A stretch of DNA of 62,472 bases, filler included, from Candidatus Nanoarchaeia archaeon (GTDB taxonomy: Archaea; Nanobdellota; Nanobdellia; Woesearchaeales; DATDTY01), in NCBI GenBank assembly GCA_035290625.1. It is 7 parts of 7 records of this genome, joined end to end, with 100 filler letters (N's around TTAATTAATTAA, not from the genome) between each part and the next. Parts side by side here need not be neighbours in the genome. Positions count along the whole stretch, not along the records: positions 1 to 7,630 come from DATDTY010000071.1; positions 7,731 to 31,220 come from DATDTY010000072.1; positions 31,321 to 38,280 come from DATDTY010000073.1; positions 38,381 to 48,488 come from DATDTY010000074.1; 3 more parts are not named here. One strand, given 5' to 3'. The position numbers were made by a program, and so were the translations under genes. The notes beneath the pieces are model-generated. The model saw only the letters and a list, made by a program, of their open reading frames with translations. It was not told the origin of the DNA and did no database searches. Of the stretch, positions 190 through 46,313 are shown one piece after another (within the stretch, counting starts at the first letter, position 1; the number at the start of each line of letters is the position of its first letter).

Positions 190-347
190 GGCTTTTGGCG
201 TAGGGAAGGGTGGCATCATTCTGTGAGCATCTTAGGTATAGGAAAGAGCAGCGACAAGGGGGTTGTCCAATTCGGGGAATGTCGCTTTGCAGGGATACAA
301 GCGCATGTGAACTCGATGCCACCCCGAACGAGCCTACGCCAAAAGCC
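190..347 (+). mobile_element. Structured MITE-like repeat R1
   Basis: Perfect 15-bp TIR GGCTTTTGGCGTAGG/CCTACGCCAAAAGCC; inner helix GGGTGGCATC/GATGCCACCC; apical GCGAC-AAGGGGG-TTGTCCAATTCGGGGAAT-GTCGC; flanks TAACACAAA/TAACAATCA (6/9). Confidence 0.75.
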
Positions 348-562
348 TAACAATCAACAAGTTTACTTAACGCCTGCAGAGTTCTTGCAGATTTCTTTGT
401 TTGTCCTTATCTTTTGAGGTTTTTGATTAGGGGCTAACGTTCCAGCATCCCTGACTCAGGATTATTACTACTATAAAGTAAATAAAAATAGAAAACTTTA
501 AAAAGCCCTTTTGGTTCTCTTTTGATTATAGTCTCAGTTTGATTACAGTTATAGCCTCGATT

Positions 563-727
563 ATGGTACCTAACACATTGCCGGGAGTGGACGCCCATCT
601 TGATGAAGAAGGCCTGTCAGTTGCACCTATGGTTGTCTGCGGTGAATGCAAGCGGAAGATGGAGAGAGTCGGAGCGGATTCTTATACGTGCTCCGAGTGC
701 GGGGAGAAGTTTAGCCAGAAGGATTAG
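563..727 (+). CDS. Small zinc-ribbon protein
   Basis: Two CxxC pairs (CGEC...CSECG); start codon uncertain. Confidence 0.5.
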   Translation: MVPNTLPGVDAHLDEEGLSVAPMVVCGECKRKMERVGADSYTCSECGEKFSQKD

Positions 728-851
728 GCGCGGCTCCATTTTTCTATTATCCTTTATTACATTATCCTCTCTATCCCCTTTGTTACCCTCCTTTAAACAG
801 CAATTTTAAATAGAAATACTTATAAAACCTGACGATACTTGTTAGTTAACC

Positions 852-2771
852 ATGGTGAAGTCTCCAAAGAACATCCTTCTTGTTTATCCTGAGTTTCCAA
901 AGACAACGTACTGGAGCTTTAGCGGAGCGCGCCGGTTTGATGGAAGGAAGGCTGTGATGCCACCGCTTGCCTTACTTACTGTTGGAGCGATGCTTCCTAA
1001 AGACTATGACCTAAGATTAGTTGATATGAATGTGAAAGAGCTTACTGACGCTGATTTAGAATGGGCTGACTCTGTATTTACCTCTTCTATGATTGTGCAG
1101 AGGGATTCTCTGGAGGAAGTTACGACCAGAGCGCATGAGCATGGAAAATCTGTTGTTGCAGGAGGCCAGCTGCCAACCCTTGCATATGAGCAGATCCCCT
1201 GGGTTGATCATTTTGTCCTGAATGAGGCAGAAGCAACTTTGGGCCCTTTTCTTAAGGACTTAGAAGCAGGCAATCCTAAACGCGTATATGCGCAGGAGAT
1301 CCGTGATTTTCGGGGCAAGGAAACCCCTTATCAGGAAGCGGAGATAGAACGCCTTATTAGATTTTTTGAGGGAAGTTCTCAGGATATCCGGATTGCAGCT
1401 ACAAGGCCTGCTGCAAGAACTACCCCCTTGCCCAGGTTTGACCTTCTGGAAGATACTCTCTACGATTATGTCTCTATGGCAGTTCAAGTATCAAGAGGAT
1501 GCCCTTTTAGCTGCGGCTTCTGTGAGATCCCTCGCTTATATGGCCATGGAGCCAGGGTAAAGGGAGGGAATCAAATCCTTGAGGAATTTGATGTGCTTCG
1601 TGATATGGGATGGAAGGGTTCTGTCTTTGTTGTAGATGATAATTTTATCGCCAATCAAAAGGAAATCAAAGCGCTCCTTCCTCAGATTGCAGCTTGGCAG
1701 GAAGCGCATGGATTTCCTTTCCAGCTCTTTACAGAAGCAAGCATGAACATTGATGATACGATCCTTGGCCTTATGCAGAAAGCCGGCTTTAATAGGGTTT
1801 TTACAGGCATAGAAACCTTTAATCCTGAAGTCTTACGGAATACCAGCAAAAGGCAGAATGCAGTCAGGGATATGCATGCTACTATCAGAAACATACAGCG
1901 TCATGGCATCGAGCCTTATGGCGGATTTATTGTGGGGCTTGACGGCTCTACTGAAGAGGATTATGACCTCATGATACAGTCTATCCGGGACCTTGGCATC
2001 GTCAATGCTATGGTTGGCTTGCTTACTGTTTCTCCGGGAAGCCCGGATTATTATACCTGCAAGAAAGAGGGAAGGCTTGTGCAGGAATCCGGAGGAGACA
2101 ATACTCATTCTTTCACTTTGAATTTTGTTCCTAAGGATGGCCAGGATCCTGAGGAAATCATAAGACAGTACATGCGGGTCCTCAGCGCTGTCTATGACCC
2201 CACTCTTAAGAACTATTTTGAAAGAGTGCGCGCACTATATGATACTCTGGGCGAGACAGGCGTTCATTTTGCTGCAAATCCAAGCTGGAAAAGTCTTATG
2301 GCAGGCGTTAAGTCTTTATTGTACCAGCCCTTCCAGCCTTATGGGTGGGAATATTCCAAATTTATTGCTTGGACATTGAGACACCACCCCTCCAAATTTG
2401 TAGATGCCATCACAGATGCTATTAAAGGCCATCATTTTTGGGCGATTACGCAAGGAAGCCTGGAGCTCCATGAGCTTACAACCTTCATGGGCGATCACAT
2501 TGAGTATCTCAATGGAAATGTCCCGAAATTAACAGAATCCATCCCGGAGAATGGAGAGTATCCTACTTTACTTGAGAGACTCCAAGGCTATCAGCATGAG
2601 GCTCAAGCAGCTCTTAGCCACGCTAAGCAGAGAATAATGAGCCTATCCCCTCCTTACAGAGAAGCTGCCCAACGCCATTATGCCTCTTTTGTGGAGCACA
2701 TTGAGCATATCGTGGAATCGATTAATGGGATTGTCCACCCTTCTCAGAAATCAAAATCAGACGGCTCCTAA
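852..2771 (+). CDS. B12-binding domain radical SAM protein (DUF4070-type)
   Basis: N-terminal 'LLVYPEFP...MPPLALLT' B12-binding region; CxxxCxxC (CPFSCGFC); VVDDNF; TATA box about 30 nt upstream. Confidence 0.9.
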   Translation: MVKSPKNILLVYPEFPKTTYWSFSGARRFDGRKAVMPPLALLTVGAMLPKDYDLRLVDMNVKELTDADLEWADSVFTSSMIVQRDSLEEVTTRAHEHGKSVVAGGQLPTLAYEQIPWVDHFVLNEAEATLGPFLKDLEAGNPKRVYAQEIRDFRGKETPYQEAEIERLIRFFEGSSQDIRIAATRPAARTTPLPRFDLLEDTLYDYVSMAVQVSRGCPFSCGFCEIPRLYGHGARVKGGNQILEEFDVLRDMGWKGSVFVVDDNFIANQKEIKALLPQIAAWQEAHGFPFQLFTEASMNIDDTILGLMQKAGFNRVFTGIETFNPEVLRNTSKRQNAVRDMHATIRNIQRHGIEPYGGFIVGLDGSTEEDYDLMIQSIRDLGIVNAMVGLLTVSPGSPDYYTCKKEGRLVQESGGDNTHSFTLNFVPKDGQDPEEIIRQYMRVLSAVYDPTLKNYFERVRALYDTLGETGVHFAANPSWKSLMAGVKSLLYQPFQPYGWEYSKFIAWTLRHHPSKFVDAITDAIKGHHFWAITQGSLELHELTTFMGDHIEYLNGNVPKLTESIPENGEYPTLLERLQGYQHEAQAALSHAKQRIMSLSPPYREAAQRHYASFVEHIEHIVESINGIVHPSQKSKSDGS

Positions 2772-3710: not shown

Positions 3711-3910
3711 GGCTCAGTAGAAAGTCAGTCGGCATCGGGCTCGCTTGCGCTTGTATTCGAGTATGCTGACACCCCCGACGGTGCTAAAAAGAGCTACGCT
3801 CTTTTGGCACACCAAAACGCCCAAAGGCGTTTTGATTGGGCCAACCCTCCGTCAGCACTGCTCATGACTGCGAAGAAGCTCAGAAAGGATGCCGGAATTT
3901 CTACTGAGCC
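3711..3910 (-). mobile_element. Structured MITE-like repeat R2, carrying a 57-nt insert at 3781-3837
   Basis: TIR GGCTCAGTAGAAA/TTTCTACTGAGCC; helices CGGCATC/GATGCCG and GCTGAC/GTCAGC; same subfamily as R7 and R9; no clear TSD. Confidence 0.8.
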
Positions 3911-7309: not shown

Positions 7310-7509
7310 GGCTCCGGTGAAAATCGGTGCTGCCGCCTCGTTGTGAGCCCTCGAAGTCAAGGGCATCGCAGCGACAAGAGGGTTGCCCCCTTCGGGGAAT
7401 GTCGCTTCCCATGAGAATATGCAGGAGGCGAACCTGGCGGCAGCCGGTGGCTTGTGAGCGAGTGAGAACGAGCTCACTCGCAAGCCACTGCGGGATTTTC
7501 ACCAGAGAC
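7310..7509 (+). mobile_element. Structured MITE-like repeat R3, with an extra hairpin at 7447-7488
   Basis: Outer IR GGCTCCGGTGAAAATC/GATTTTCACCAGAGAC; helix GCTGCCGCC/GGCGGCAGC; apical GCGAC-AAGAGGG-TTG-CCCCCTTCGGGG-AAT-GTCGC. Confidence 0.75.
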
Positions 7510-7730: not shown

Positions 7731-8118
7731 GTCCCTCCTTTTCCATGCTCTTCTCTTCCTCCTCAGTTTCCTGGATGATAAATGCGCGTGTATCCTCTGT
7801 GATACTCTGGTCTAGATTCACATAGAACAAATTTGGTCCTGCATGCACAAGGTCGTACCTCCTTCCGCCAACAACCATCTTAAATGAATCGTTAAATCCT
7901 GTTCCGATAAGGACAACTTGGTCATCCACAAAAGGCATATACAGAAGAACAAACGTATCCGGCAGCCCAAGGGAGGGCTCTTCTGGAATGGCTTCTTCAG
8001 GCTCAGATGCTTGCCCTACAAATGTGGGATGCCCATCGTAAATAGTCAGCAATACCACGGCTGAGAGCAAGAAGATGCTCAGAAACACCAGCTTCTGCCC
8101 CACTCTATCCTTGTTCAT
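7731..8118 (-). CDS. Hypothetical membrane-anchored protein (3' truncated)
   Basis: N-terminal TM followed by 'TFVGQA'; runs into the spacer. Confidence 0.6.
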
Positions 8119-8249
8119 GGCCCTTCTTTGCCCTTGCAGTATATAAAATCTCCCACTGTCTGTGCAGTGTCCGTTTTTTCTTGGGCTTACTTCCTCGACT
8201 CTATCCTCTAACCCAAATCCTTTTAAACTAGTCAAACATCCTACCGAAA

Positions 8250-8594
8250 ATGGCAGAGGAAATAGACTATTCAAAACCATTCAATGTTAGGATAATAGAA
8301 GATTGCAGGGACCCAGCTGATTATGGCATCTCTTGTAAATTAGATGGAGAGTTTGGGGTATGTTTAGGGTTGTATGAATTCCCGCATACTTGGAAAACTA
8401 GCTCTGGTGCACAAGGGAATCCTTTAACTCTTACAGAGTCTGGGGGTTATATCTGGGGGCTTGAGTGTTGGTGGGACGCGTATCCAGATGAGCATAAGGA
8501 TGTCCCATTAGATCTGCAACAAAGAGTTCTTCAACTTCATAAACAAGGTTTGGCAAAACAATTAGAAACGAATCCTGATCCCTCGTTGAATTAA
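8250..8594 (+). CDS. Hypothetical protein
   Basis: 114-aa ORF with a TTTTAAA box upstream; no recognised family. Confidence 0.55.
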   Translation: MAEEIDYSKPFNVRIIEDCRDPADYGISCKLDGEFGVCLGLYEFPHTWKTSSGAQGNPLTLTESGGYIWGLECWWDAYPDEHKDVPLDLQQRVLQLHKQGLAKQLETNPDPSLN

Positions 8595-8663
8595 AGGCCA
8601 CAGTCTTAACTTCTCCCGCTCCGTTTCGCTTGATCCTGGGAACGTGGCATCCTTTATCTGCAG

Positions 8664-10088
8664 CTAATACCCCTTGCTGAAATAAATCTCAGTAGAAGTC
8701 TCTTTCCCGCAGTGCAGGCATTTCCCTGCCTGGCCTTTCTGGTCAAACGGGATGTTCCTGGATGTGGCTCCGGTCTTCTCCTTGATCCCTGCCTCGCATT
8801 CGATCTTGCCGCAGAAGAGGCCAAGCACCAGTTTCCTTTCATCCAATGCCTTCACAACTTCCTCCCAATTCTGTGGGTGAACAATGCTCTTTGCCATCCT
8901 TTCTTTTGATTTCCTGAGCATAGATTTCTGGATATCCTCAAGGCAGGCTTTAACATAAGAGACAATGTCCTTGCAGGCAACATCCTGTTTTTCTCCAGTA
9001 TCGCGGCGGATGACAACAACACAGTTTTTCTCAATATCCTTCGGCCCAATCTCAATTCTAAGAGGGACACCTTTCATCTCCCATTCATTATATTTCCATC
9101 CCGGGGTATACCCTTTCCGGTCATCAAGCTCAACCTGAAGCCACTTGAGCTTTTTCTGAATGTCTTTTGCTTTTTGCAGAATTGCCTCATCATGCTTGCC
9201 AAACAGGATCGGGATAACCACGCAATGGATGGGAGCAATTGCTGGGGGGATTACGACCCCCTTATCATCGCCATGCTCCATAATAACTGCCCCAATAGTC
9301 CTTGTTGAGATCCCCCAGGAATTCTGGTAAGGAAGATGAGCCTCCTCATCTTTTCCCAAATAGGATATGCCGAAGGCTTTTGCAAAGTTCTGTCCGAGGT
9401 GGTGTGAAGTAGCCATCTGCAGCCCTTTACCGTCAGGCATGAAGGCTTCTACAGACAGCGTGTACTTTGCTCCTGCAAACTTCTCATGCTCAGTCTTTCT
9501 GCCGGCAATCACAGCCACTCCAAGTACTTCTTCGCACAGCTTTTGATATTCCTCAAGATAGAGCCGGGTCTCTTTTGCGCATTCTTCATCAGTCTCATAC
9601 ACGCAATGGCCTTCCTGCCAGAGGAACTCCCTGGTCCGCAGAAATAATTTTGTGGCTTTGGTCTCCCATCTTACAACATTTGCCCACTGGTTGATTCTGA
9701 GGGGAAGATCCCTATAGCTCCGAATCCATCTTGAATACATATCATACATGATTGTTTCTGAGGTTGGACGTATGGCAAGGCGTTCACCTTCTTCACTGTT
9801 CGCAATCCAGGCAACCTCAGGCGCAAACCCCTCTGCATGCTGTGCTTCTTTCTTGAAGAAGGATTCCGGTATGAACAGGGGGAAATAGGCGTTTTTCACT
9901 CCTAGCTTCTTTATCCGCCCGTCAAAATACTGCTGAATATGTTCCCACATCCCATACCCGTGCGGCCTGATCACCATACACCCCTTTACAGGGGAATAAT
10001 CGGCAATCTCGGCCTTGACGATTGCTTGGGGATACCATTCGTCAAGCCTGGACTTTGGGGCAGTGATGCCTATGGCTTTCTCAACCAT
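8664..10088 (-). CDS. proS: Proline--tRNA ligase (archaeal/eukaryotic type)
   Basis: RPTSET, VRWE..TKLFLRTREFLWQEGH, SWGISTR, KGVPLRIEIGPKD; C-terminal Zn site. Confidence 0.98.
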   Translation of the reverse strand: MVEKAIGITAPKSRLDEWYPQAIVKAEIADYSPVKGCMVIRPHGYGMWEHIQQYFDGRIKKLGVKNAYFPLFIPESFFKKEAQHAEGFAPEVAWIANSEEGERLAIRPTSETIMYDMYSRWIRSYRDLPLRINQWANVVRWETKATKLFLRTREFLWQEGHCVYETDEECAKETRLYLEEYQKLCEEVLGVAVIAGRKTEHEKFAGAKYTLSVEAFMPDGKGLQMATSHHLGQNFAKAFGISYLGKDEEAHLPYQNSWGISTRTIGAVIMEHGDDKGVVIPPAIAPIHCVVIPILFGKHDEAILQKAKDIQKKLKWLQVELDDRKGYTPGWKYNEWEMKGVPLRIEIGPKDIEKNCVVVIRRDTGEKQDVACKDIVSYVKACLEDIQKSMLRKSKERMAKSIVHPQNWEEVVKALDERKLVLGLFCGKIECEAGIKEKTGATSRNIPFDQKGQAGKCLHCGKETSTEIYFSKGY

Positions 10089-10133
10089 GCTCTCCTGAGA
10101 TTGTATGAGTTATTTAAAGGTTGCTCATCAAAA

Positions 10134-10291
10134 GGCTGCGTTCAAAATGAAGGTTGCCGTCATTCTTGCGAGCCTCTTCTATATGTATATGTACAGCTGA
10201 CAGGGGGACTTGCCCCCTCGGGGATGTCAGCTTTATTCCTTAGACAGCTCAGGCGAGCCGATGGCAACCCGAAGAGATTTTGAACGCAGTC
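10134..10291 (+). mobile_element. Structured MITE-like repeat R4
   Basis: TIR GGCTGCGTTCAAAAT/ATTTTGAACGCAGTC; flanking direct repeat TCATCAAAA/TCATCAAAG (8/9); full core. Confidence 0.85.
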
Positions 10292-10315
10292 TCATCAAAG
10301 TTTCACACTCTCCTT

Positions 10316-10825
10316 TTATTCAGAAATGATTGTGTACACATACAGAATGATCAATGCCACCAAATACAGAATCAGGAAACTGACCAAGAACGATCCCCAG
10401 TCAATGTACATGCTGGGGGCAATAGCATCAAGATTTGCAACGATGACCGAGACTGGGACAAACCCCCAAATCTGCCTGCAAGACTCTCCCGGCTTGCAGA
10501 GCGGATTGGTGTAGGTTGGAACTCCATGGATAATCGAAAAAACTGCAATGATGAAGATAATCACAAAAAACTTGGCGACAGCAATCCCAAAAAACCTGCG
10601 TAACCTGCCTCGTTTCTCCTTGATTTTCCTGCGCAAGGGCATGATGATGGAAATGAGAAATGCGCATACGGCAATAAGGCTAAGATAGACACCTGCAGAA
10701 TTCACGAGTTCAGCAGAGACCTGGCTTTCAGACTCGATCAGCCCGCTATACAAGCTCAGGCCACTTCCTGCAAGAAAAATCACCAGTGATATGAGGAAAA
10801 GCCTGAACCACGGATGCCTGGCCAT
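10316..10825 (-). CDS. Hypothetical multi-pass membrane protein
   Basis: About 4 hydrophobic segments; start placed at MARHPW, downstream of a TATAAAA box. Confidence 0.65.
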   Translation of the reverse strand: MARHPWFRLFLISLVIFLAGSGLSLYSGLIESESQVSAELVNSAGVYLSLIAVCAFLISIIMPLRRKIKEKRGRLRRFFGIAVAKFFVIIFIIAVFSIIHGVPTYTNPLCKPGESCRQIWGFVPVSVIVANLDAIAPSMYIDWGSFLVSFLILYLVALIILYVYTIISE

Positions 10826-10884
10826 ACACGTTTGATGGTAGACACCCTTTTTATACCTTTTCCCATCATTGGCTCCACCCAAAA

Positions 10885-11005
10885 GGAGGCTGCCATCAAT
10901 TTTGCGAGCCTCTTTACAGCTCTATGCACAGCTGACCGGGGGATGTCCCTACGGGGATGTCAGCTTTGTACCTTGGAAAGTTCAGGCGAGCCGATGGCAG
11001 CCCGA
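10885..11005 (+). repeat. Structured repeat R5 (core only, no clear TIR)
   Basis: GGCTGCCATC/GATGGCAGCC helix, TTTGCGAGC, GCTGAC-CGGGGGATGT-CCCTACGGGG-AT-GTCAGC, GCGAGC; sibling of R4. Confidence 0.8.
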
Positions 11006-11055
11006 TTAAGCCTTTGTAAAGGCATACAGAACTTGTGAAGTTTACTTTACACAAA

Positions 11056-11169
11056 TGAGCCCGCCAGGATTCGAACCCGGATTTGTTGGTATATCCAAGC
11101 AATACCTCCCTTTCGTTCATCGTGATTGCTTACCGAAGCCAACTGTGCTATCCGTTACACCACGGGCCC
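11056..11169 (-). tRNA. tRNA-Arg(TCG) with a 42-nt intron at position 37/38 (11091-11132)
   Basis: GGGCCCG...CGGGCTC acceptor; GTTGG-CTTCGG^...^A-CCAAC anticodon arm; intron stem AAGCAAT/ATTGCTT forming a relaxed BHB; GGTTCGAATCC. Confidence 0.92.
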
Positions 11170-11206
11170 CTATTCAAGAAAAAGAATGCACACTATTTAT
11201 TGCTTT

Positions 11207-12220
11207 CTACTTCACCTTCTTGATCACATAGTCTTTCCTGGCTTTCTCTCCGGTTCCGCGAATCACAACATCTTCGTCGCTGTTCCTCCTCACTTCAGTA
11301 ATACTGTATGAGCCTCCTTTGCGGGGCTGCTCAGTTTCAGGCTCGTCAGCCTCTGCGTACGGCTCCTTCATGCGCTTCACTGCCAATTCGATTGCTTTTT
11401 TGTTGCAGATCTTGAGGAGCTGTCTTGGGTTCTTTGCTCCTGCCTTATAGATCCTGTCAAGCTGCCTCTCGCTGAATGGAGTTAATCCTGTGCCTCCACA
11501 CCCTCTGACGCGCTTTTCAACCATTTCTTTCATTGCCTCAGGATCCAGGCTTCCGATCTTCAGGCGGAGGCTGTCCTTCTCATCAATGCTGCCGGCATTC
11601 CCTACACTTGTTGCAATGATTTGAATATCCATGCTTTCTAAGAGTGATTCTGCCATGCTCATGTTTCCTTTTGACAGGTATTCCAGGTTGTCAATCAGCA
11701 CCACAAGGCGCTTTCCTTTCAGCCGATCCTTGATCGCCTTCTTTTTCTCTTCACCAGAGTCAACGGCTTTCCGCTTGAAGCCGGTTGCCTTCTCGAAGAG
11801 GACATCAAGGAGCGAGTCTTGCCCGATCTGTCTGGCATCAATAAACACGGACATGAGCTTTGATCCATATCCCTGCAACTGCTCTGACAGCCACATCAGC
11901 AGTATTGTTTTCCCTGATCCTTCTTCTCCCGTGATCTTGCCAAAGCGGTACTTGTTCACGAGGAACAGGTTGATCTTCTCTTTTTCCCTTGCACAATCTG
12001 CGATATATTCTGAGGCAGGCAGCATGACGCCTGTTTCAAAGGGGTTCTGCTTGAATCCCAACTCACTGATCCAATCCAGGACCAGCTCGCTGTCTATCTT
12101 TTTCCTAAACTGCGGCTTGAATGAAGGCATCTTAACCTGCCAATTCTCTCTTCCCAGGCGCAGGGTGAACAGAGGCTCTTCAAGAGGGTCAGGCTCCCAA
12201 GAAAAGCGGATAAATGCCAT
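11207..12220 (-). CDS. AAA+ ATPase (ExeA/AAA_22-like)
   Basis: LGFKQNPF, Walker A GEEGSGKT, Walker B VVLIDN, 'NPRQLL' sensor. Confidence 0.75.
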   Translation of the reverse strand: MAFIRFSWEPDPLEEPLFTLRLGRENWQVKMPSFKPQFRKKIDSELVLDWISELGFKQNPFETGVMLPASEYIADCAREKEKINLFLVNKYRFGKITGEEGSGKTILLMWLSEQLQGYGSKLMSVFIDARQIGQDSLLDVLFEKATGFKRKAVDSGEEKKKAIKDRLKGKRLVVLIDNLEYLSKGNMSMAESLLESMDIQIIATSVGNAGSIDEKDSLRLKIGSLDPEAMKEMVEKRVRGCGGTGLTPFSERQLDRIYKAGAKNPRQLLKICNKKAIELAVKRMKEPYAEADEPETEQPRKGGSYSITEVRRNSDEDVVIRGTGEKARKDYVIKKVK

Positions 12221-12257
12221 AGATTTCCTGGAGGGGAGTTTGTTTATAAATGTTTTG

Positions 12258-12438
12258 GGCTGCGTAGAGGTTGGTGCGAAATCCTCGCAATGCTCGGGTT
12301 ACCATCGAGTTCGCACATGGTATCTATATCTGTGATAATCGACATTCGTCCCCGTAAGGGACTTCCCCCTCAACTCAGTTTATGCTTTGCATTCAACAGC
12401 CTCGCGGAAGGGTGGCAACGCCGACTTTCTACAGAGCG
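12258..12438 (-). mobile_element. Structured MITE-like repeat R6 (diverged)
   Basis: Minus strand reads GTTGCCACC-CTTCCGCGAGG...AGGGGGAAGT-CCCTTACGGG...GCGAAC-TC-GATGGTAAC; imperfect GGCTGCGTAGA-type ends; a second GGCTGCGTAGA follows at 12439. Confidence 0.7.
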
Positions 12439-12483
12439 GGCTGCGTAGAAAACTTTAAATACACTCCCTCCTTGTAAATTCAC

Positions 12484-13179
12484 ATGAAGCAGATTGTCGT
12501 TAGAGTCACGCCCTCCAGAGTCAAGTTCTCTCTTTGCATCCTTGTGATCTTAGGATTAGCCTACTATGCCTATTTTTACTATGGCCAGTATAATGAATAC
12601 TACCAAAAATACAATGATCTCCTGACTGGCAGCCAGCCTGAATCTACAGAATCCGCTGAATCGGCGCTTGAGGAATCATCGACAGAAACAACTCCAGAGG
12701 AAGCCAGCCCAGCTGAAGAGCCAGCTTCTAATGCTTCAGATGCCTCTGGAGAGACTGCATCAGAGGCTTCTGAATCCCTTTCCGGCAAGCTTGAAGTCAA
12801 GCTCACAGCTCCGCTCTATGAGATTAAAGAGTCAGGAGACACAGAAAAGGCAGTGATCAGCCAAGTCAGGTTTTCTGTCACCAATGGGTTCGGCGCAGCC
12901 CAGAACCTCTTAGTCGAGTTCCACGCGTATGATGTTGGTGAGACTGATGAAAATAAGATTAATGCACGCAAAGGCGGGGATAGGACAACGCTGGCAACGC
13001 TCGCTGCAGGCCAGAGCATCACGAAGACTATCCTTTTTCCTTCAGACCAGCGCATCAACCTCTATAATCTCGATAAGGCAAAGATTGTGCAGATAGACCT
13101 CATCGATAAAAAAAGCTTTGACGATTCTAAGGAAGTTAAGGTTCTTGCATCAGACAAGGTTACACTGACGTTTACATAA
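12484..13179 (+). CDS. Hypothetical secreted/surface protein with S/E/A-rich linker
   Basis: N-terminal TM, low-complexity linker, beta-rich C-terminal domain. Confidence 0.7.
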   Translation: MKQIVVRVTPSRVKFSLCILVILGLAYYAYFYYGQYNEYYQKYNDLLTGSQPESTESAESALEESSTETTPEEASPAEEPASNASDASGETASEASESLSGKLEVKLTAPLYEIKESGDTEKAVISQVRFSVTNGFGAAQNLLVEFHAYDVGETDENKINARKGGDRTTLATLAAGQSITKTILFPSDQRINLYNLDKAKIVQIDLIDKKSFDDSKEVKVLASDKVTLTFT

Positions 13180-13182
13180 GTC

Positions 13183-13461
13183 TTAACGCCTGCCAAGGGT
13201 TATCTCAATCGTAGAAACCCGGACATCCCTTCCTTCCCTGTTCTGGAAGCCTTCAGAATTAATCTGGATGCTATTGACTGCGATCTGGTTCTCCAAAAAC
13301 CGCTTTGAGGCAACCTCGGCAACATCAACAGCGCGGCTGATGAACTTGCCTCTTGCCTTGACAATGACCTGAGAAGCGTTTTTCGCGGTGAACTGCATCA
13401 CAACACCTGTGACATAGTTCATGAGTGGCTTGTTTCCAATAAAGACTGCGTTGTCGCTCAT
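13183..13461 (-). CDS. albA: DNA/RNA-binding protein Alba
   Basis: VFIGNKPLMNYV, KARGKFISRAVDVAE, VSTIEI. Confidence 0.97.
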   Translation of the reverse strand: MSDNAVFIGNKPLMNYVTGVVMQFTAKNASQVIVKARGKFISRAVDVAEVASKRFLENQIAVNSIQINSEGFQNREGRDVRVSTIEITLGRR

Positions 13462-13646
13462 GCTTCTTTTTTCATCAAGCGCGTAATATATCCTGCAATT
13501 CCATTCCGAATCTTCTTGCTTGGGCCCTCTATGTATTGGTCGACAAGCTTTTTATTAGCATTAAATTCCTTGCTCAGCTCGTCCTTATGGCTTTCTATAG
13601 TCTTATTGCTCATCCGCTTGACGAGCTGTGTCTTGATTCTGCCCAT
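13458..13646 (-). CDS. rps17e: 30S ribosomal protein S17e
   Basis: MGRIKT..VKR, SKKIRNGIAGYITRL. Confidence 0.96.
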   Translation of the reverse strand: MGRIKTQLVKRMSNKTIESHKDELSKEFNANKKLVDQYIEGPSKKIRNGIAGYITRLMKKEA

Positions 13647-13718
13647 AGGCTGCCTAATCTCGCATTCTTTATAAACATTGTGGTAGAATTTGATATGTTT
13701 TTGATGCGATTTAAGGCT

Positions 13719-14708
13719 TCAGCCTTTCTTGTATTCCGTATATGGCGTTGTCCTCTTGCTGATATACTCATTTGCAGAGTAGCTGGCATTTACTGCCTCA
13801 GCAACTCCTGTTATGGCCTGCTTGAACTCAGAATCACCAACATCTCCTGCTGCATAGAAGCCTTCAATATTTGTTGATGCGAGCCGATCAATGATGATCT
13901 CTCCTTTTGCATTCAACCTGACTCCGATCTCTTTCGCAAGCCGGCTTAAGGGGATATGGCCGATCTCAACAAAGAGGCCGTCAAGCTTGAATTCCTTTGA
14001 TCCTTTGTAAGGCTTGTCAAAAACAACATGAGCCAGTTTTTCCTTTCCTTTGATCTCTACAACATTTGTGTTATTGATGACTGTGATTTTCCTGTTCTGT
14101 TCCACCCGCTTCATATTGATGGGCTCAGGATGGATTTCTTCGCCGCGATAAATGATATACACTTTTTTCGCCCATTGGGTAAGCAATAAAGCCTCTTTTG
14201 CAGAGCTGTCAGCCCCTCCGACAACACCAATAACTTTATTCTTGTAAAATGCTCCGTCACAGAGTGCGCAGTAATGCACACCTTTGTTTGTGAATTCTTT
14301 CTCTCCTGGAACATTTAGTTTTTTCCATTCACTTCCTGTCACAAAAATGATGGTTTTTCCCCAGTATGCCCCACTTGCTGTGGCCACCTTGAAGCTTCCA
14401 TCTTTCTTCCTCTCAATCCTTGTTGCGTTCTCATCAGCATAGTCAAGGGGGTAGTTCCGCATATGCTTTTCCAGTGCTCCTGCTAACTCGAGGCCTGTTA
14501 CGCTTGGAAACCCCGGGTAGTTTTCTACATCAGTCGTTAAGGTGATCACTCCTCCGAGATTTTCTGCAACAAGGAGGATCTTGAGCTGGAACCTCCCTGA
14601 GTACATCGCAGCCGCAAGCCCAGCACAGCCTCCGCCGATAATAATAACCTCATAAAGCGTCTTTTCTTTCGGCTTTCCGGGCTTGATGTCAGGTATGTCT
14701 TTTGGCAT
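13719..14708 (-). CDS. trxB: Thioredoxin reductase
   Basis: IIGGGCAGLAAA, VENYPG, GVHYCALCDG, YAAGD. Confidence 0.93.
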   Translation of the reverse strand: MPKDIPDIKPGKPKEKTLYEVIIIGGGCAGLAAAMYSGRFQLKILLVAENLGGVITLTTDVENYPGFPSVTGLELAGALEKHMRNYPLDYADENATRIERKKDGSFKVATASGAYWGKTIIFVTGSEWKKLNVPGEKEFTNKGVHYCALCDGAFYKNKVIGVVGGADSSAKEALLLTQWAKKVYIIYRGEEIHPEPINMKRVEQNRKITVINNTNVVEIKGKEKLAHVVFDKPYKGSKEFKLDGLFVEIGHIPLSRLAKEIGVRLNAKGEIIIDRLASTNIEGFYAAGDVGDSEFKQAITGVAEAVNASYSANEYISKRTTPYTEYKKG

Positions 14709-14762
14709 GCTTGGTGGGCAGGGATGGGAATATATAAATATTTGGTTTAACACTTCGTTCTT

Positions 14763-15323
14763 ATGAAGCCTGAAATCCGCATCCTCGGCATCGATGACTC
14801 TCCGTTTGACAAATTCAGCCAGAAACGGATCCTGGTGATAGGAACTGTGTTCAGAGGAGGCACGGTTTTGGACGGCGTCATGTCAACAACTGTGGCCGTT
14901 GATGGAACTGATGCAACAAAGAAACTCATCGAAATGATCAATAAATCAAAATTCAAGCCTCAGCTGCGTTGCGTCATCCTTGATGGGATTGCATTAGGCG
15001 GCTTTAATGTTATAGATATCCACGCACTGCATAAAAAAACAAAAATCCCAGTCATGGTTGTTATCCGTAAATACCCCGACCTTCTAAAGATAAAGACAAT
15101 CTTAACAAAACTCAAAAAAGAGAAAGCCGTAACACTCATCGAGAAGGCAGGCGCAATCCATAAGGCCGGCAATATCTATATCCAGATCAAAGGCATGACC
15201 CTCAAAGCAGCAGAAGAGACCCTCAAAATAACCTGCACCCGCTCCTACCTTCCGGAGCCAATTAGAGCAGCCCACATCATCGCAGCAGGGGTTGTGAAAG
15301 GAGAAAGCAAGGGAAGGGCTTAA
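14763..15323 (+). CDS. DUF99/UPF0215 family protein (endonuclease V-like)
   Basis: RILGIDDSPF, VDGTDAT, LDGIALGGFNVID, PEPIRAAHIIA. Confidence 0.9.
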   Translation: MKPEIRILGIDDSPFDKFSQKRILVIGTVFRGGTVLDGVMSTTVAVDGTDATKKLIEMINKSKFKPQLRCVILDGIALGGFNVIDIHALHKKTKIPVMVVIRKYPDLLKIKTILTKLKKEKAVTLIEKAGAIHKAGNIYIQIKGMTLKAAEETLKITCTRSYLPEPIRAAHIIAAGVVKGESKGRA

Positions 15324-15673
15324 AGCCCTGCCTGCTTCAGCTGGGCATCTAGGCTTTTATATGGTTGGGTCCAGTAGGGGACAACTGTTGCGCCTTCTGG
15401 CCGGATGACATTTCTGGGTCCTTCCCTTCTGATAATCTCCAGTTTTTCGCCTTCCATCTGGTGCATTTCAATTGGCAAAGGGAAGTTCTGGGCATAATCT
15501 ATCCACTGATTACCCGTCTTTTCTCCCTGCCGGTGGATAAGAACAGCAGGGCCTGAGCGAAGCCTGGCAACAAGGCCTTCAGAGCCGCCTTCAAGAAGGA
15601 ATTTTGTTCCAATATGCTTTTTGCCTAACAGAAACTGTTCCTCCATTGGAAACGAGTATAACTGTTCTTCCAT
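15320..15673 (-). CDS. Hypothetical protein
   Basis: ORF with a TTTATATA box upstream of MEEQLY. Confidence 0.55.
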   Translation of the reverse strand: MEEQLYSFPMEEQFLLGKKHIGTKFLLEGGSEGLVARLRSGPAVLIHRQGEKTGNQWIDYAQNFPLPIEMHQMEGEKLEIIRREGPRNVIRPEGATVVPYWTQPYKSLDAQLKQAGL

Positions 15674-15746
15674 AAGGGGGATAATCTCAGGGATTATATA
15701 AATTTGCACCCTACCATTTAAAAACCCACCATTATTCCTGTTTCCC

Positions 15747-16016
15747 ATGGATTATGACTTGGACGAGCAAAGAATCATCAAAGAGATCAAGGAGAAAGGC
15801 CATAAGCGAATCCTTCTTCAATTAGCCGATGGCATCAAGCCGCAGGCCAGGGATTTGGTAAAAACCATAGAATCAGAAACCGATGCAGAATGCCTAATCT
15901 GGTTCGGCTCATGTTTTGGCGCCTGCGACCTGCCGTTGTCAATCAAATCCTTAGGCGTATCCTTGGTGGTAGCCTTCGGCCACAATACCTATATCAAGGA
16001 TGTGAAAGGATGGTAG
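15747..16016 (+). CDS. dph2: Diphthamide synthesis Dph2, N-terminal fragment
   Basis: ILLQLADGIK, SCFGACDL, AFGH. Confidence 0.88.
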   Translation: MDYDLDEQRIIKEIKEKGHKRILLQLADGIKPQARDLVKTIESETDAECLIWFGSCFGACDLPLSIKSLGVSLVVAFGHNTYIKDVKGW

Positions 16017-16747: not shown

Positions 16748-17180
16748 TGTGGTCAACCTATTTTTGACTCCGAAATCGCTGGAGGCAAGGATTGGGTTTA
16801 CCTTTTCTACCAGTAAGCGCAATGGAAGCGGCAACAAAGACTATAGGTTCAGTGTGGAGATGGTAGGCGATAAACCTCAGCAGGTACTGCTTATCCGCAC
16901 CTATGGCTCTTATCGCTCGCTGCTCGAAACTCTTGCGGTTTATGATTCAAGCTCTGCGAATACTCCTTCCAGAGTGATGTACTCAAAAGGCAAATCTCCA
17001 GAGATCTCTCTTAATCGTATCGGTGCGGCCCTCGTTATTGATCCTCCAACCATTCCAGCACCTACAGCTGAAGCGGTTTTTAGCAGAGCGATTGCTGAGT
17101 ATTTGGAATTTAAAGAAACGAACAGGATTGACGAAGCGCTTTCCTACCGCTCCTCCATAAAACTTTTAAACAAAGAATGA
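16740..17180 (+). CDS. Hypothetical protein
   Basis: 146-aa ORF overlapping the dph2 stop, with a GGTGA SD-like site. Confidence 0.55.
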   Translation: MGDVVNLFLTPKSLEARIGFTFSTSKRNGSGNKDYRFSVEMVGDKPQQVLLIRTYGSYRSLLETLAVYDSSSANTPSRVMYSKGKSPEISLNRIGAALVIDPPTIPAPTAEAVFSRAIAEYLEFKETNRIDEALSYRSSIKLLNKE

Positions 17181-28580: not shown

Positions 28581-28725
28581 GGCTCAGTAGCAAGTCAGTC
28601 GGCATCAGGCTTGCTTGTGCCTGCATCTGCTCCAGCTGACACCCCCGAAGGGGCCTACCCTCTGTCAGCACCGCTCATGACTGCAAAGAAGCTCGCAGAA
28701 AGGATGCCGGACTTGCAACTGAGCC
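28581..28725 (-). mobile_element. Structured MITE-like repeat R7
   Basis: TIR GGCTCAGTAGCAAGTC/GACTTGCAACTGAGCC; flanks TTTGCAGGC/TTCGTAGGC (7/9); full core. Confidence 0.85.
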
Positions 28726-38140: not shown

Positions 38141-38280
38141 GGCTCTGTCCTGAATGGAGGTTGCCGCCAATTTCGCGAGACTCAATCAAGCGAGACATCA
38201 GCAGCGGAGGGGGGTGTCCCTTACGGGCGAGGTGCCGCTCTTAGCTGAAAACAGCAAGAGCCGAGCTCGCGGCAACCCGA
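38141..38280 (+). mobile_element. Structured MITE-like repeat R8 (3' truncated by the contig end)
   Basis: Left TIR GGCTCTGTCCTGAAT as in R11; GGTTGCCGC/GCGGCAACC; AGCGG-AGGGGGG-TGT-CCCTTACGGG...CCGCT. Confidence 0.8.
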
Positions 38281-38380: not shown

Positions 38381-38870
38381 CTGCGAATAGCATGCTCAAA
38401 CGAGGCATGGGAGAAACCTTACGGGGGAAGTCCGTCGGCATGCAGGCAAGGCACTTCTATATGAAGTGCTTTACGCATAATATGTTGGTGAGGGGTTAAG
38501 ATGGAACTTGCAATCGAGCCGGTGAGGCTTTCGGTGATCTTGGTGTAGGGTCATGATAAGCATTGATGGCGCCGGGGGTGGCAGTGCTGCGGTCTTTTGC
38601 CTGATGGCAAAGCCCTATTCGGCATCCCGAAGGGAGTATCCCCTGCCTCATAGCACGCCACCACGGCGCTGGACAAACTGGGGGTTGTCCCTTACGGGGT
38701 GGTTTGTAGGGCATGCGGACAGCATGGCCGTCCAGCCGCCAAAGTGGTGGTCTACCTGATAAGGCCATCCATACCTGGTCAGTATCGGTAAAAGCATCAG
38801 TTCTTGGCTGTATTGACGCTTCTGCAAAAAACTGCGGTCGGAGGTGTTTGAAGCCTCAAAACCAAAAGCC
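38381..38870. other. GC-rich, highly structured non-coding region related to the repeat family
   Basis: Apical motif on both strands (38621-38647 minus, 38673-38707 plus); nested helices; ends in CCAAAAGCC like the R1 TIR. Confidence 0.55.
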
Positions 38871-39722: not shown

Positions 39723-39866
39723 TGCTCAGTAGAAAGTCAATCGGCATCAAGCTCGCTTGTGATTGCATCTGCGATTGCTGACATCCCCGAAGGGGCCTAC
39801 CCCTGTCAGCAGTGGTTATGACTGCGAAGAAGCTCGCAGAAAGGATGCCGGACTTTCTACTGAGCC
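39723..39866 (-). mobile_element. Structured MITE-like repeat R9
   Basis: TIR (T)GCTCAGTAGAAAGTC/GACTTTCTACTGAGCC; flanks CAAAAGACG/CAAAAGAGG (8/9); full core. Confidence 0.85.
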
Positions 39867-43138: not shown

Positions 43139-43717
43139 ATGTACTTATTTACCAGGCAATTCTTAGAGGATTACGCAGGCGTAGGATCTCCGCTCCCTTC
43201 GTCAAAATATGTTGCAGATCTCATCCTTAGGCAGGTTGACTTTTCACAGCTCGAGAGTATTGTGGAGTTCGGCCCCGGCACAGGCGCCTTTACAGAAGGG
43301 ATTCTTGAGAGGATGGATGTCAATACTCTTTTTTTCTGCATCGAGAAAAATAAGGAGTTTTACGGAATGCTGGTAAGGAAGTATCCTTGCATCCCTGTCT
43401 ACAACGACTCAGCAGATCAAATAGGCTCCTACCTCGGTCGTTTTGGCCTCACAGGAGTTGATGCCATTATCTCTTCCCTCCCCTGGTCAAATTTTGAGGA
43501 GAGCCTCCAGGCCAGGATCCTGAAAGAAACATCTGATTCTCTCAACCCTGGCGGCAGATTTATTACCATTGCATATAAGCCCTGGCACATGCTTCGTAAG
43601 GGAAGGAGGTTCTCAAAGCTGCTCCACGAGTATTTCAGCGATGTCAAAGAGACAAGGACTGTCTGGCTCAATGTATTCCCAACATTTGCGTATGTTTGCG
43701 GCAAGGACGAAGAATGA
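43139..43717 (+). CDS. Class I SAM methyltransferase (phospholipid N-methyltransferase-like)
   Basis: GSPLPSS, VEFGPGTGAFT, IISSLPW, VWLNVFP. Confidence 0.85.
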   Translation: MYLFTRQFLEDYAGVGSPLPSSKYVADLILRQVDFSQLESIVEFGPGTGAFTEGILERMDVNTLFFCIEKNKEFYGMLVRKYPCIPVYNDSADQIGSYLGRFGLTGVDAIISSLPWSNFEESLQARILKETSDSLNPGGRFITIAYKPWHMLRKGRRFSKLLHEYFSDVKETRTVWLNVFPTFAYVCGKDEE

Positions 43718-43719
43718 TA

Positions 43720-43883
43720 GGCTGCGTTCAACATCTCGCACAGCTCGGGTGAGCGCCAGGTTCGCCACGCGCATATAGTCTAGCAGAGCGACATATCCCC
43801 GAATGGGACAACCCCCTTGTCGCTGGGGTGTTCTTTGTTTAGTGGCTCACAAAGGGGCGCTCACCTTCATTTCGAACGCAGCC
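43720..43883 (-). mobile_element. Structured MITE-like repeat R10
   Basis: TIR GGCTGCGTTC/GAACGCAGCC; helix GGTGAGCGCC/GGCGCTCACC; flanks AAGAATGATA/AAGAAACATA (8/10). Confidence 0.82.
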
Positions 43884-43927
43884 AAGAAACATAAAAAATA
43901 TAAATACACGAAAAAGCGCCTTAGGGT

Positions 43928-44398
43928 ATGGCAAAGGAATCAACCATAAAGCTTATTGGCATAGTTCTGATAGGAGTCTCAGTGCTGCTTGTCGTCTTAT
44001 TATCCCTGATCAAAGCCAATCTGGACGAGCAGTCTGCATTCCTCTGTTCCGTGGTGAGCTCAAGCAGCATGGACATGAGCAGCTGCCCGGTGCATAAGAG
44101 CAACACCTCCTGGCTGCTGATCGTTGCATTCAGCCTGAGTTTTCTCAGTCTTGCAGCAGGAGCATTCCTTTTGCTCAAGCCGCTGGCAGAGCGCAAAGCC
44201 TTTCCAAAGCTTGATGAGCAGGAAAAGCAGGTGTACGACCTCCTGAAGAGCCATCAAGGATCTCTCTACCAATCCGACATCCTCAAGGAGACCCAGCTCT
44301 CCAAGGTCAAGCTCACCCGGCTTCTTGACAGGATGGAACAAAAAGAGGTTCTTGAGCGGAAGCGCAGAGGCATGACCAACATCATCGTGCTGAGATGA
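43928..44398 (+). CDS. Membrane-bound winged-helix (MarR-like) regulator
   Basis: Two TMs around C...CPVH; C-terminal YQSDI...LSKVKLTRLLDRME...ERKRRGMTN. Confidence 0.85.
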   Translation: MAKESTIKLIGIVLIGVSVLLVVLLSLIKANLDEQSAFLCSVVSSSSMDMSSCPVHKSNTSWLLIVAFSLSFLSLAAGAFLLLKPLAERKAFPKLDEQEKQVYDLLKSHQGSLYQSDILKETQLSKVKLTRLLDRMEQKEVLERKRRGMTNIIVLR

Positions 44399-44411
44399 AA
44401 CTAGTTTCATC
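44394..44411. promoter_or_regulatory. Perfect 18-bp palindrome (putative operator)
   Basis: GATGAAACTAGTTTCATC upstream of the metal cluster. Confidence 0.5.
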
Positions 44412-44450
44412 ATTAGTTAGATAAGGTGTTTCAGTCTCTTCCTAAGCAAG

Positions 44451-44668
44451 GGCTCTGTCCTGAATGAAGGTTGCCGCCAATTTCGCGAGGCTCAATAAGC
44501 AAATATCATCACAAGCGGAGGGAGTTGCCCCAATCAAAACGCCATCGGGCGTTTTGGTGTGCCAAAAGAGCGTAGCTCTTTTTAGCACCTACGGGCGAGG
44601 TGCCGCTCTTAGCTGAAAACTGCAAGAGCCGAGCTCGCGGCAACCCGGGAGAGATTCAGGACAGAGCC
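44451..44668 (+). mobile_element. Structured MITE-like repeat R11, carrying a 57-nt insert at 44532-44588
   Basis: Perfect 15-bp TIR GGCTCTGTCCTGAAT/ATTCAGGACAGAGCC; sibling of R8 and R12. Confidence 0.85.
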
Positions 44669-44683
44669 ATAAGGGTGATACTT

Positions 44684-45151
44684 ATGAAACGATTTATGAC
44701 GGGATTCGTGGTGTTTATCGCAGCTGCGTTGCTGCTGGCAGGCTGCAGCAATGCGGGGTATACTGTAGCAAGCCAGTCCAAGAGCCAAAGCCAGTTTAAG
44801 ATAGTCATGTCAGAGCAGTGCGGCTGCTGCGGCCTGTATTCGAAATACATGAAGAAACACTTTGATGTCGCCGTAACCTCAGTAGATGATATATCCCAGG
44901 TAAAGGATGAATATGGAGTTCCAGATCAGATGAGGAGCTGCCATACGGGAATTATTGACGGCTATTTTGTGGAAGGCCATGTTCCTTATGAAGCTGTTGA
45001 AAAGCTCATTGCAGAAAAGCCTGAAATTGCAGGGATAGCCCTGCCGGGGATGCCGTCAGGAGCGCCAGGGATGCCAGGATCCAAAAGAGAGCCCTTTGTT
45101 GTCTATGCGATCCATAAAGACGGCTCCACGACAGAGTTTATGAGGATCTGA
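44684..45151 (+). CDS. DUF411/CopG-type metal-binding lipoprotein
   Basis: Lipobox LAGC, CGCC, SCHT, VEGHVP, ALPGMPSGAPGM. Confidence 0.92.
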   Translation: MKRFMTGFVVFIAAALLLAGCSNAGYTVASQSKSQSQFKIVMSEQCGCCGLYSKYMKKHFDVAVTSVDDISQVKDEYGVPDQMRSCHTGIIDGYFVEGHVPYEAVEKLIAEKPEIAGIALPGMPSGAPGMPGSKREPFVVYAIHKDGSTTEFMRI

Positions 45152-45152
45152 G

Positions 45153-45677
45153 ATGGGCTTTCGCAAGAGCCTTGTCCTGCTCCCCAGCCTTGCCCTCTTG
45201 GCCAAGAGTATCCATGCGCACTGCCCCTTATGCACAGTAGGGGCAGCTGCGGCAGCAGGGGGAGCTGCCTATATGGGCGTCAGCACATCAGTCGTAGGCC
45301 TGTTCATAGGAGCATTTGGGGTTTCCACAGGGTGGTGGGTTTCGAATCTTCTTAAAAAAAAGTTTATTCCATTCCAGAAGATTGTGCTAATCCTTGTTTC
45401 ATACATTGCAACAGTGCTGCCAATCCTTCCCCTGATGCCTGGCTTTTATCCACTGCTTATTTCTTTTTCTGGTGATTACGGCTCCTTGCTGAACAGGACG
45501 TATCTCATAAATCTCTTCTTTGCTGGAAGCCTCTTGGGCGGAGCTATTGTTTGCATCACGCCCTTGCTGAGCAGGAGGATTGCTGCATGGCGCGGCAGGA
45601 TGCTTCCTTTCCAAGGGATTGCGCTTACCCTGCTGCTCCTTGTGATAGCAGCCCTGGTTTTGGGAGTGGTAAGCTGA
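45153..45677 (+). CDS. Membrane protein with HCPLC motif
   Basis: AHCPLCT followed by several TMs. Confidence 0.75.
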   Translation: MGFRKSLVLLPSLALLAKSIHAHCPLCTVGAAAAAGGAAYMGVSTSVVGLFIGAFGVSTGWWVSNLLKKKFIPFQKIVLILVSYIATVLPILPLMPGFYPLLISFSGDYGSLLNRTYLINLFFAGSLLGGAIVCITPLLSRRIAAWRGRMLPFQGIALTLLLLVIAALVLGVVS

Positions 45678-46186
45678 TGGCGCAGGACGAAGTACAGCAA
45701 TGGCTCACCAAAGCCCAGGAGGTAAGGAAAGGCCAGCTTGATCTCTCAAAGGATGAAGACCTCAGCATCGCACTGATGAACCTCATAAGCCTTGAGGAGC
45801 ACTTCTATTTCACAGCCATGAAGACCAGCAACCAGAAATATATTGACATGCTCCAGTCAGTTCGTGAGCTGCGCATCAGGCTTCTCAAGAAGATGGTCAC
45901 AAAGCCTGAAGGCGAGGAATGGTGCATCAGCAAGCACCTGCTCGCAGCAAGCATGCGCCTGATCGAGGTCGGCACCAAAGAGCTTTCCAAGGACAGGAAG
46001 GAGGCTGAGTCGTACTTCGCATCAGCCTTTGATCTTTACTCCCTCTTCTTCGCAATCAACCTCAAGATGATTGGGGTCCAGAAGCTTGAGGATTCCAAAA
46101 AGCCCGAGGAGCGGGGCTCAAACCGCATGATGAGGGGATTCTCGGCAATGGTAAAGAAGATTGTCGACTGCTGCAAGGAGTGGTAA
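45677..46186 (+). CDS. Hypothetical helical protein with metal-ligand motifs
   Basis: MNLISLEEH, WCISKHLL, C-terminal DCCKE; TGATG overlap. Confidence 0.75.
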   Translation: MAQDEVQQWLTKAQEVRKGQLDLSKDEDLSIALMNLISLEEHFYFTAMKTSNQKYIDMLQSVRELRIRLLKKMVTKPEGEEWCISKHLLAASMRLIEVGTKELSKDRKEAESYFASAFDLYSLFFAINLKMIGVQKLEDSKKPEERGSNRMMRGFSAMVKKIVDCCKEW

Positions 46187-46195
46187 AGGATCATA

Positions 46196-46313
46196 CGGGC
46201 TGCCGCCAATTTTGCGAGGCTCAATAAGCAAAGATCATCACAAGCGGAGGGGGATGCCCCATCAGGGGTGGTGCCGCTCTTCGCTGAAGACGTGAAGAGC
46301 CGGCGGCAGCCTG
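46196..46313 (+). repeat. Structured repeat R12 (core only)
   Basis: GGCTGCCGCC/GGCGGCAGCC; TTTGCGAGG; AGCGG-AGGGGGATG-CCCCATCAGGGG-TGGTG-CCGCT. Confidence 0.8.

Follow-up and report, generated by a model that had tools for sequence, protein, structure and literature searches.

The genome of Candidatus Nanoarchaeia archaeon (assembly GCA_035290625.1) contains a large family of short, folded intergenic elements, of which twelve copies lie in the stretch of 62,472 nucleotides analysed here, hereafter called the window. The window joins seven contigs of the 84-contig, 1.37-Mb archaeal genome with linkers of N between them; contig C72, which recurs below, occupies 7731-31220. An original prediction made for this window regarded the elements as the best candidate for an undescribed system. 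Judged by their sequence, they are instead MITEs (miniature inverted-repeat transposable elements), because they carry terminal inverted repeats and 9-bp target-site duplications and because a matching insertion sequence of the IS5 family resides in the same genome. The best explanation, which we consider probable, is that these MITEs lie beside promoters, are likely moved by the resident IS5-type transposase or its relatives, and have a core that folds as DNA.

The identification as MITEs is based on several features that are found together. The ends of 105 elements agree at a minimum of 13 of 16 positions and thus form terminal inverted repeats. The 9-bp flanks agree at seven or more positions in 41 of 103 flanked elements, compared to 1.5% when the flanks of different copies are paired, and perfect target-site duplications were counted 13 times at 9 bp and fifteen times at 8 bp with boundaries set by us. 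Within the window, five of the eleven testable copies show flank agreement of at least 7/9. The window copies are short (118-218 bp), non-coding and dispersed, an autonomous element with like ends is present in the same genome, and 9-bp duplications also flank the insertion sequences of relatives. One copy is chimeric (12267..12438, - strand) and combines an end of the GGCTCTGTAGAAAGTC type with an end of the GGTTGGTGCGAAAT type; it lies between two back-to-back TATA boxes and retains a perfect 9-bp duplication (12258-12266 and 12439-12447), which suggests that a single transposase is able to use both kinds of ends. A reading of the main elements as hairpins of the repetitive extragenic palindrome (REP)/REP-associated tyrosine transposase (RAYT) or IS200/IS605 type was ruled out by the inverted ends and the 9-bp duplications.

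All twelve copies of the original prediction are present at the places given there, and both a hidden Markov model (HMM) and a covariance model, R1, recover them: the HMM, built from these copies and run over the window, matched exactly these twelve, and R1 likewise found 12/12. The helix pairs quoted for them (GGTGGCATC/GATGCCACC, GGTGAGCGCC/GGCGCTCACC, GCTGCCGCC/GGCGGCAGC, GCGAC/GTCGC, GCTGAC/GTCAGC and AGCGG/CCGCT) were all found, and both orientations occur as claimed, with the G-rich strand on the + strand in seven copies and on the - strand in five. Searching the 1.37-Mb genome with the same HMM by nhmmer yielded 178 matches at E<=1e-3, approximately one per 7.7 kb, and the family makes up about 2% of a very small genome. 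The covariance model gave 132 matches at E<=0.001 in 635,628 bases comprising the window and 40 genome loci, and it is nearly strand-exclusive, as only one entry in the list of 132 hits a copy that had already been matched on its other strand. The R1 model also matched 20 out of 60 further genomes belonging to the order, all labelled as different families, with counts of up to 35 or more per genome and a maximum of 47 candidates scored in each. No Rfam family matches the elements: at gathering thresholds over the whole window a tRNA alone passes, and in E-value mode over 10100-11050 and 43600-46400 the best hit has an E-value of 2.3 and no family is identified.

The candidate partner of the MITEs is an insertion sequence of 967 bp (G000:C49:19040-20006) with ends agreeing at 16/16 positions (GGCTCGATTGCAAGTT) and a 294-codon open frame without stops. 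It was found by searching 301 genomes of the order with the transposase of a MITE-rich relative, G015, to which the resident protein (match C49:19067-19903) is 62% identical; Pfam searches of the own genome with PF01609 and PF13737 missed it. The last 140 bp of this insertion sequence open three contigs, one of which is contig C74 in the window, beginning within the IS5-family element (38381..38520, + strand), where the C-terminal 36 codons were matched, followed by the right end ...AACTTGCAATCGAGCC. The left end GGCTCAGTTGCAAGTC of the window MITE at 28581..28725 agrees with the end of the resident insertion sequence at 13 of 16 positions as counted by eye. The insertion sequence of G015 is 957 bp long, its ends agree at 16/16 positions (GGCTCGTTTGCAAGTT), a duplication of 9 bp (GGAGAACTA) flanks it, and its transposase passes the cut-off of Pfam PF01609 (37.9 bits vs. 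23). The reading frame of this transposase (L056:1186-2034) is broken by a single in-frame TGA at codon 131, which marks either a dead copy or read-through.

Further insertion sequences of the order, with 25-70% protein identity, have ends resembling different MITE subfamilies (GGCTCTGTAGAAAGTT, GGCTGTGCTGAAACCC, GGCTTAGTCCCGAATC), and the variation of the outer helix of the MITEs therefore tracks different transposases. Four of these relatives carry perfect 9-bp duplications and a fifth one of 8-9 bp, and in the flanks that were read TATA-like runs lie 5-6 bp from the duplication. In the mechanism that we propose, the resident transposase or its relatives would move the MITEs in trans. The folded core is common to subfamilies with different ends. 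An IS4-like element, the only hit of the Pfam searches of the own genome, was considered as partner and rejected: the insertion sequence at G000:C61:230-1850, on a 2.3-kb contig, encodes a 516-aa DDE_Tnp_1 transposase, has different ends starting with GTAAATTACCT and is unrelated. As a separate observation, the leader of the C49 insertion sequence, before the transposase start, contains the runs G5, C5 and G5, for which two alternative hairpins are possible, and the centre of the MITE (G5 - CCCC - GGGG) resembles this arrangement.

A further property of the family is the position of the MITEs relative to promoters. The original prediction placed the copies mostly just outside TATA boxes, and indeed 9 of the 12 window copies have a run of seven A/T beginning 15-18 nt from an end. 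Across the family, runs of eight A/T show two peaks relative to the G-rich strand of the element, one at -24 to -22 in front of its 5' end, the other at +15 to +17 behind its 3' end. Read outward from the element end, positions 1-9 coincide with the duplication and have only a slight base preference, positions 11-13 are rich in A and resemble the transcription factor B (TFB) recognition element (BRE), and positions 16-23 read TTTWWAAA. Approximately 6 bp separate the end of the duplication from a BRE/TATA box, and the gene served by this box points away from the element. This BRE/TATA layout was present on 82 of 195 element sides compared to 10.5% of random intergenic sides, and on at least one side in 65 of 90 elements compared to 19.7%. 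An outward open frame of at least 60 codons follows on 68 of the 82 layout sides vs. 41 of the 113 other sides, and 48 of these 68 frames start at +43 to +49 from the element end, a spacing that fits leaderless mRNAs. Relative to the promoter, the elements face either way without bias (45 vs. 37). By crude gene calls, convergent gene pairs are under-used as insertion sites (9/91 vs. 231/1230 gaps) and divergent pairs are over-used (25/91 vs. 217/1230). The insertion sequences show the same promoter spacing in two of the three contig-start fragments of the own genome and in the copies of G015, G078, G136 and G038. The transposase would select its site via the promoter sequence or via DNA bent by TATA-binding protein (TBP) and TFB, rather than the pattern arising just by survival of harmless insertions.

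These positional data also bear on the view, close to that of the original prediction, that the elements are independently transcribed, structured small RNA genes of a guide-like kind, each with a TATA box of its own. In many copies, a TATA box does lie at approximately 16-23 nt from the G-rich strand's 5' end, a conserved scaffold carries variable segments, and Rfam contains no match. However, a run of at least seven A/T at a distance of 12-34 nt is found as often at the 3' end, with 48 upstream and 45 downstream cases and 19 on both sides among 94 elements, the order of BRE and TATA points outward and 68 of 82 such sides are followed by an outward gene. As moreover insertion by a DDE transposase is evident from the duplications and the inverted ends, and G·T and A·C occur in the helices at similar frequency (see below), we consider this explanation largely refuted and highly improbable.

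The elements fold into stable rods, and for the stretches folded the minimum free energies of the twelve window copies range from -57 to -113 kcal/mol. The anatomy was drawn from a MAFFT alignment of 26 copies (A4) combined with column-pair statistics; the structure was set by hand, because RNAalifold applied to a plain MAFFT alignment of ten cores recovered two helices only owing to misalignment. The architecture described in the original prediction holds and could be extended by an outer helix, a further pairing and a mini-hairpin. Outermost is a helix of approximately 15 bp starting with GG(C)T, which represents the terminal inverted repeat and encloses the 'lower helix' of the original description. 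Inward of it follow a purine-rich internal loop, the 10-bp 'lower helix' itself and an asymmetric loop. The motifs G(C/T)GAG and GCGA(G/A)C form a further helix that surrounds a conserved tandem G·A/A·G, and two unpaired variable segments of approximately 17-20 nt each lie within the rod. The apical part consists of an upper helix of 7-8 bp, a G5 bulge and a CCC/GGG hairpin of 3-4 bp. A 2-bp mini-hairpin with the consensus GCGAAGC intervenes between the 10-bp and the outer helix on the 3' side and has become a long hairpin in some copies (e.g., 7446-7488). A kink-turn was rejected for the G·A motif since inspection of the alignment places both G·A pairs within a continuous helix with no adjoining 3-nt bulge. 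Two short forms, at 46196-46313 in the window and at L008:9144-9263, end in the inner 10-bp helix, which begins with GGCT or GGTT like an inverted end, and the TATA box next to the L008 form is at the spacing usual for the family; possibly, the inner helix represents an earlier pair of transposon ends.

The structural claim of the original prediction, namely selection on a single-stranded fold, holds in one part and is not supported in another: the helices covary strongly and stems change more slowly than loops, whereas a fold of one particular strand is not favoured, because G·T and A·C occur in similar numbers and either orientation is found. In A4, 88.5% of the alignment cells pair, compared to 32-43% with the partner slid and 69.8% in shuffles; two-sided changes occur at 34 of 44 pairs, and none of 500 shuffles reached the observed values. 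In a larger alignment of 130 distinct copies (A5), which was fitted to the R1 model and is hence biased toward structure, 90.0% of 4910 cells pair and two-sided changes occur at 42 of 44 pairs. The outer helix pairs in 91-97% of the A5 cells, and the 2-bp hairpin of the GCGAAGC type covaries as well, its outer pair being G-C in 41, A-U in 14 and C-G in 3 copies. Covariation is thereby shown for the five helices and the mini-hairpin.

Such covariation might also arise passively, from a palindromic founder of each MITE subfamily or from homogenization of the arms by hairpin repair, with the fold itself not under selection. The mismatches are strand-symmetric, which is what neutral decay predicts, paired changes are co-inherited within a subfamily and inflate the cell counts, and the outer helix is accounted for by the need to match the transposase. 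Yet the inner helices are absent from the insertion sequences, and the age and diversity of the family are reflected in 75 clusters at 80% identity that still pair at 90%. Within the eight clusters of at least three members, deviations from the cluster consensus affect 4.2% of stem sites (161/3824) and 12.9% of unpaired sites (449/3475), i.e., stems change about three times more slowly, where the less reliable alignment of loops may inflate the latter rate; of 17 double changes in these clusters, 16 keep the pair and one breaks it. Furthermore, motifs in the bulge and the loops have been conserved between subfamilies as well as in the 20 of 60 other genomes searched. A merely passive origin of the covariation appears to us quite unlikely.

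At which level the fold acts can be judged from the kind of mismatches. From a functional RNA one would expect a much greater tolerance of G·U than of A·C. Here, G·T was found in 133 cells and A·C in 140, or in 130 vs. 111 after dropping two mostly unpaired columns, and in the consensuses of 20 clusters the numbers are 13 vs. 17. An RNA-specific fold is thus not supported, because G·T and A·C are similarly frequent, the orientation is random and the elements lie upstream of promoters firing outward. This parity, together with orientation and position, fits a pairing that matters on both strands or the neutral decay of single copies.

The idea that the MITEs carry a fold selected as RNA, acting in read-through transcripts with the rod as stabiliser, terminator, insulator or processing site, nevertheless has points in its favour. 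The majority of copies (57/91, 63%) lies between tandem genes and hence behind the 3' end of an upstream gene, conserved unpaired motifs accompany the covarying stems, the R1 matches fall nearly on one strand only (1/132 listed matches opposite), and copies without a recognizable duplication still pair. In addition, transcripts of MITEs form stable stem-loops according to the accessible part of the review literature (PMC10969869). Against this stand the wobble counts given above (130 vs. 111, and 13 vs. 17 in cluster consensuses), the lack of an orientation bias relative to neighbouring promoters or genes, and the location upstream of outward-firing promoters, and we regard an RNA-level function as unlikely.

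We favour instead a role of the fold at the level of DNA in the mobilization of the MITEs, because of the wobble parity, the orientation and position of the elements and the mini-hairpin motif GCGAAGC, which is described, in the part of the source available, as an extraordinarily stable DNA mini-hairpin (PMC13037366). The DNA could fold as a hairpin or cruciform that brings together both ends of the 150-bp element, or the fold could be read by the transposase or by a host factor. More specifically, the core might be a functional folded module that these elements need and that brings the ends of the 150-bp element together or recruits the promoter machinery for exact integration by an archaeal IS5-type transposase upstream of BRE/TATA; we put this forward tentatively and consider it rather unlikely as it stands. 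If true, it would constitute structure-dependent, promoter-tethered DDE transposition, which is not described for archaea.

Several observations weigh against promoter-proximal MITEs moved by the IS5-type transposase with a core folding as DNA. The full C49 copy of the insertion sequence has no matching duplication in its flanks. The best NCBIfam match of its transposase is the IS5 family NF033579 with 99 bits, below the cut-off of 140, and the sole match of the G015 transposase is the same family with 97.9 bits. A relative of the transposase (E<=1e-10) was found in three of the 20 other MITE-matching genomes (G015, G038 and G043); ten further ones have no transposase match among the rows listed, and seven are not among them. 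In three of these seven that are very rich in MITEs, G026, G035 and G054, a search with Pfam PF01609 found nothing in the fragmented assemblies. The folded core gave no R1 match at E<=1 in the insertion sequences (20 loci, 66,076 bases), and the ends inspected by eye agree in lacking it. No empty site or excision was seen; the contigs of four DNA runs over 7731-27730 end inside elements, and the single joint across the copy at 10871 (10827 to 11054, skipping 226 letters) has sides of 26-30 letters only. A plain cruciform explains neither the two unpaired segments nor the conserved, strand-asymmetric motifs (tandem G·A pairs and G5 bulge). Finally, the inner helices pair at 88.1% in copies without recognizable duplication (n=39) and at 91.3% in those with one (n=20), a comparison biased by the pre-selection of copies for good ends and good model scores; equal pairing in copies whose duplication has decayed could mean that the fold is kept in place for the host.

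Compared to known systems, the family is most similar to the prokaryotic MITEs moved in trans by IS5-family transposases. Like these, it consists of numerous short, non-coding intergenic copies that have inverted ends and target duplications and contain sequence able to form hairpins, and it is accompanied by a related insertion sequence whose ends are alike. It differs from these in its core, which is no deletion remnant of the insertion sequence, is common to subfamilies with differing ends and covaries, and in its insertion at a fixed distance from archaeal promoters. Archaeal MITEs are named for Sulfolobus, Halobacterium and Haloquadratum in the accessible part of a review (PMC10969869), and a MITE census lists a Woesearchaea genome among the densest archaea with 105 per Mb, the available part of that source describing neither structure nor targets (PMC11602168). 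The nearest named transposase in a plasmid collection is that of ISHvo2, a haloarchaeal member of the IS5 family, with 27.5% identity over 97% of the length (E 4e-12), and all plasmid-collection matches listed are archaeal and either annotated as IS5 family or unannotated. The similarity to ISHvo2 is only distant, and the element described here is smaller (957-969 bp) and has a 9-bp duplication beside a promoter. IS903, also of the IS5 family, reportedly generates 9-bp duplications and has ends beginning with GGC; the likeness rests on duplication length and end sequence, not on the transposase sequence, and no enterobacterial IS903-type record was seen among the 12 records listed or the 10 genera named for 63 plasmid records at E<=1e-5.

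With respect to the target, exact promoter-proximal integration has been described for a few bacterial and yeast elements. According to the part of the source available, TnGBS, ISLre2 and ISKra4, bacterial elements with Mutator-like DDE transposases, insert 15-17 bp upstream of sigma-A promoters (PMC3942029). They resemble the MITEs in the fixed distance upstream of promoters and differ in belonging to another transposase superfamily, in using bacterial sigma-A promoters and in their fixed orientation, compared to BRE/TATA and random orientation here. Our literature search, which covered sources other than subscription journals and supplements, did not turn up an account of archaeal IS5-type elements that target sites close to promoters. 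Structured intergenic repeats of bacteria, such as ERIC, BOX and Correia elements, are likewise dispersed palindromic units with conserved stem-loops, and ERIC is reported to show compensatory changes; these repeats have other hosts and differ in sequence, and none of them matched via Rfam.

The remaining copies in the window illustrate the variability of the family. The copy at 190..347 (158 bp, + strand) has the ends GGCTTTTGGCGTAGG and CCTACGCCAAAAGCC, scores 139 bits with R1 and has flanks agreeing at 6/9 positions. At 10134..10291 (158 bp, + strand) the flanking duplication is TCATCAAA (8/9), and the TATA box 16 nt to the left serves a gene on the - strand that ends at 10088. The copy at 10871..11023 (+ strand), with a degenerate right end, scores 73 bits and has its left A/T run at 16-17 nt. 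On the - strand lie the copies at 28581..28725 (145 bp, duplication 7/9), at 39723..39866 (144 bp, duplication 8/9, TATA-like runs on both sides) and at 43720..43883 (164 bp, duplication 7/9), the last of which has the top R1 score of 148.9 bits. The copy at 7310..7509 (200 bp, + strand), whose mini-hairpin on the 3' side has grown to the long hairpin mentioned above, has A/T runs on both sides. The copy at 38141..38280 (+ strand) is truncated by the end of contig C73 and matched by both HMM and R1, and the core-only short form at 46196..46313 (+ strand) covers model positions 19-136 and ends in the inner helix starting with GGCT.

Two copies are enlarged by a 59-nt insert consisting of two hairpins in the apical loop: the copy at 3711..3910 (200 bp, - strand), with the insert at 3780-3838 and A/T runs 16-17 nt away on both sides, and the copy at 44451..44668 (218 bp, + strand), with the insert at 44531-44589. 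This unit has 17 BLAST matches in the genome (16 of at least 55 letters and one 29-letter piece), all of them in apical loops of several MITE subfamilies and in the same orientation. As the copies are 90-100% alike and closer to each other than their host elements are, the unit looks, from these alignments, like a still smaller mobile unit that targets a hairpin loop. It may belong to the IS200/IS605 type: the Y1 transposase family of IS200/IS605 has six matches in the own genome, and the insert shows a vague resemblance, in one hairpin only, to the ends of one IS200-like element. A gene fragment of an IS200/IS605-type Y1 transposase lies at the end of contig C72 (31063-31215), and three full copies are found elsewhere in the genome. 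The tRNA match of Rfam mentioned above spans 114 nt (11056-11169, - strand, 48.8 bits) and was not reported by ARAGORN; it is probably an intron-bearing tRNA.

For genome annotation, these findings mean that the family should be masked as repeats and that its copies should not be called as small RNA genes; the family also explains many contig breaks in such assemblies. The conserved core, which is not derived from the insertion sequence, is a case in which selection on structure inside a transposon can be tested. Most copies lie directly before a core promoter, and the MITEs thus mark, and may influence, a large share of the promoters of this organism; they also serve as natural markers of where BRE/TATA boxes and leaderless starts lie in an uncultured member of the DPANN archaea.

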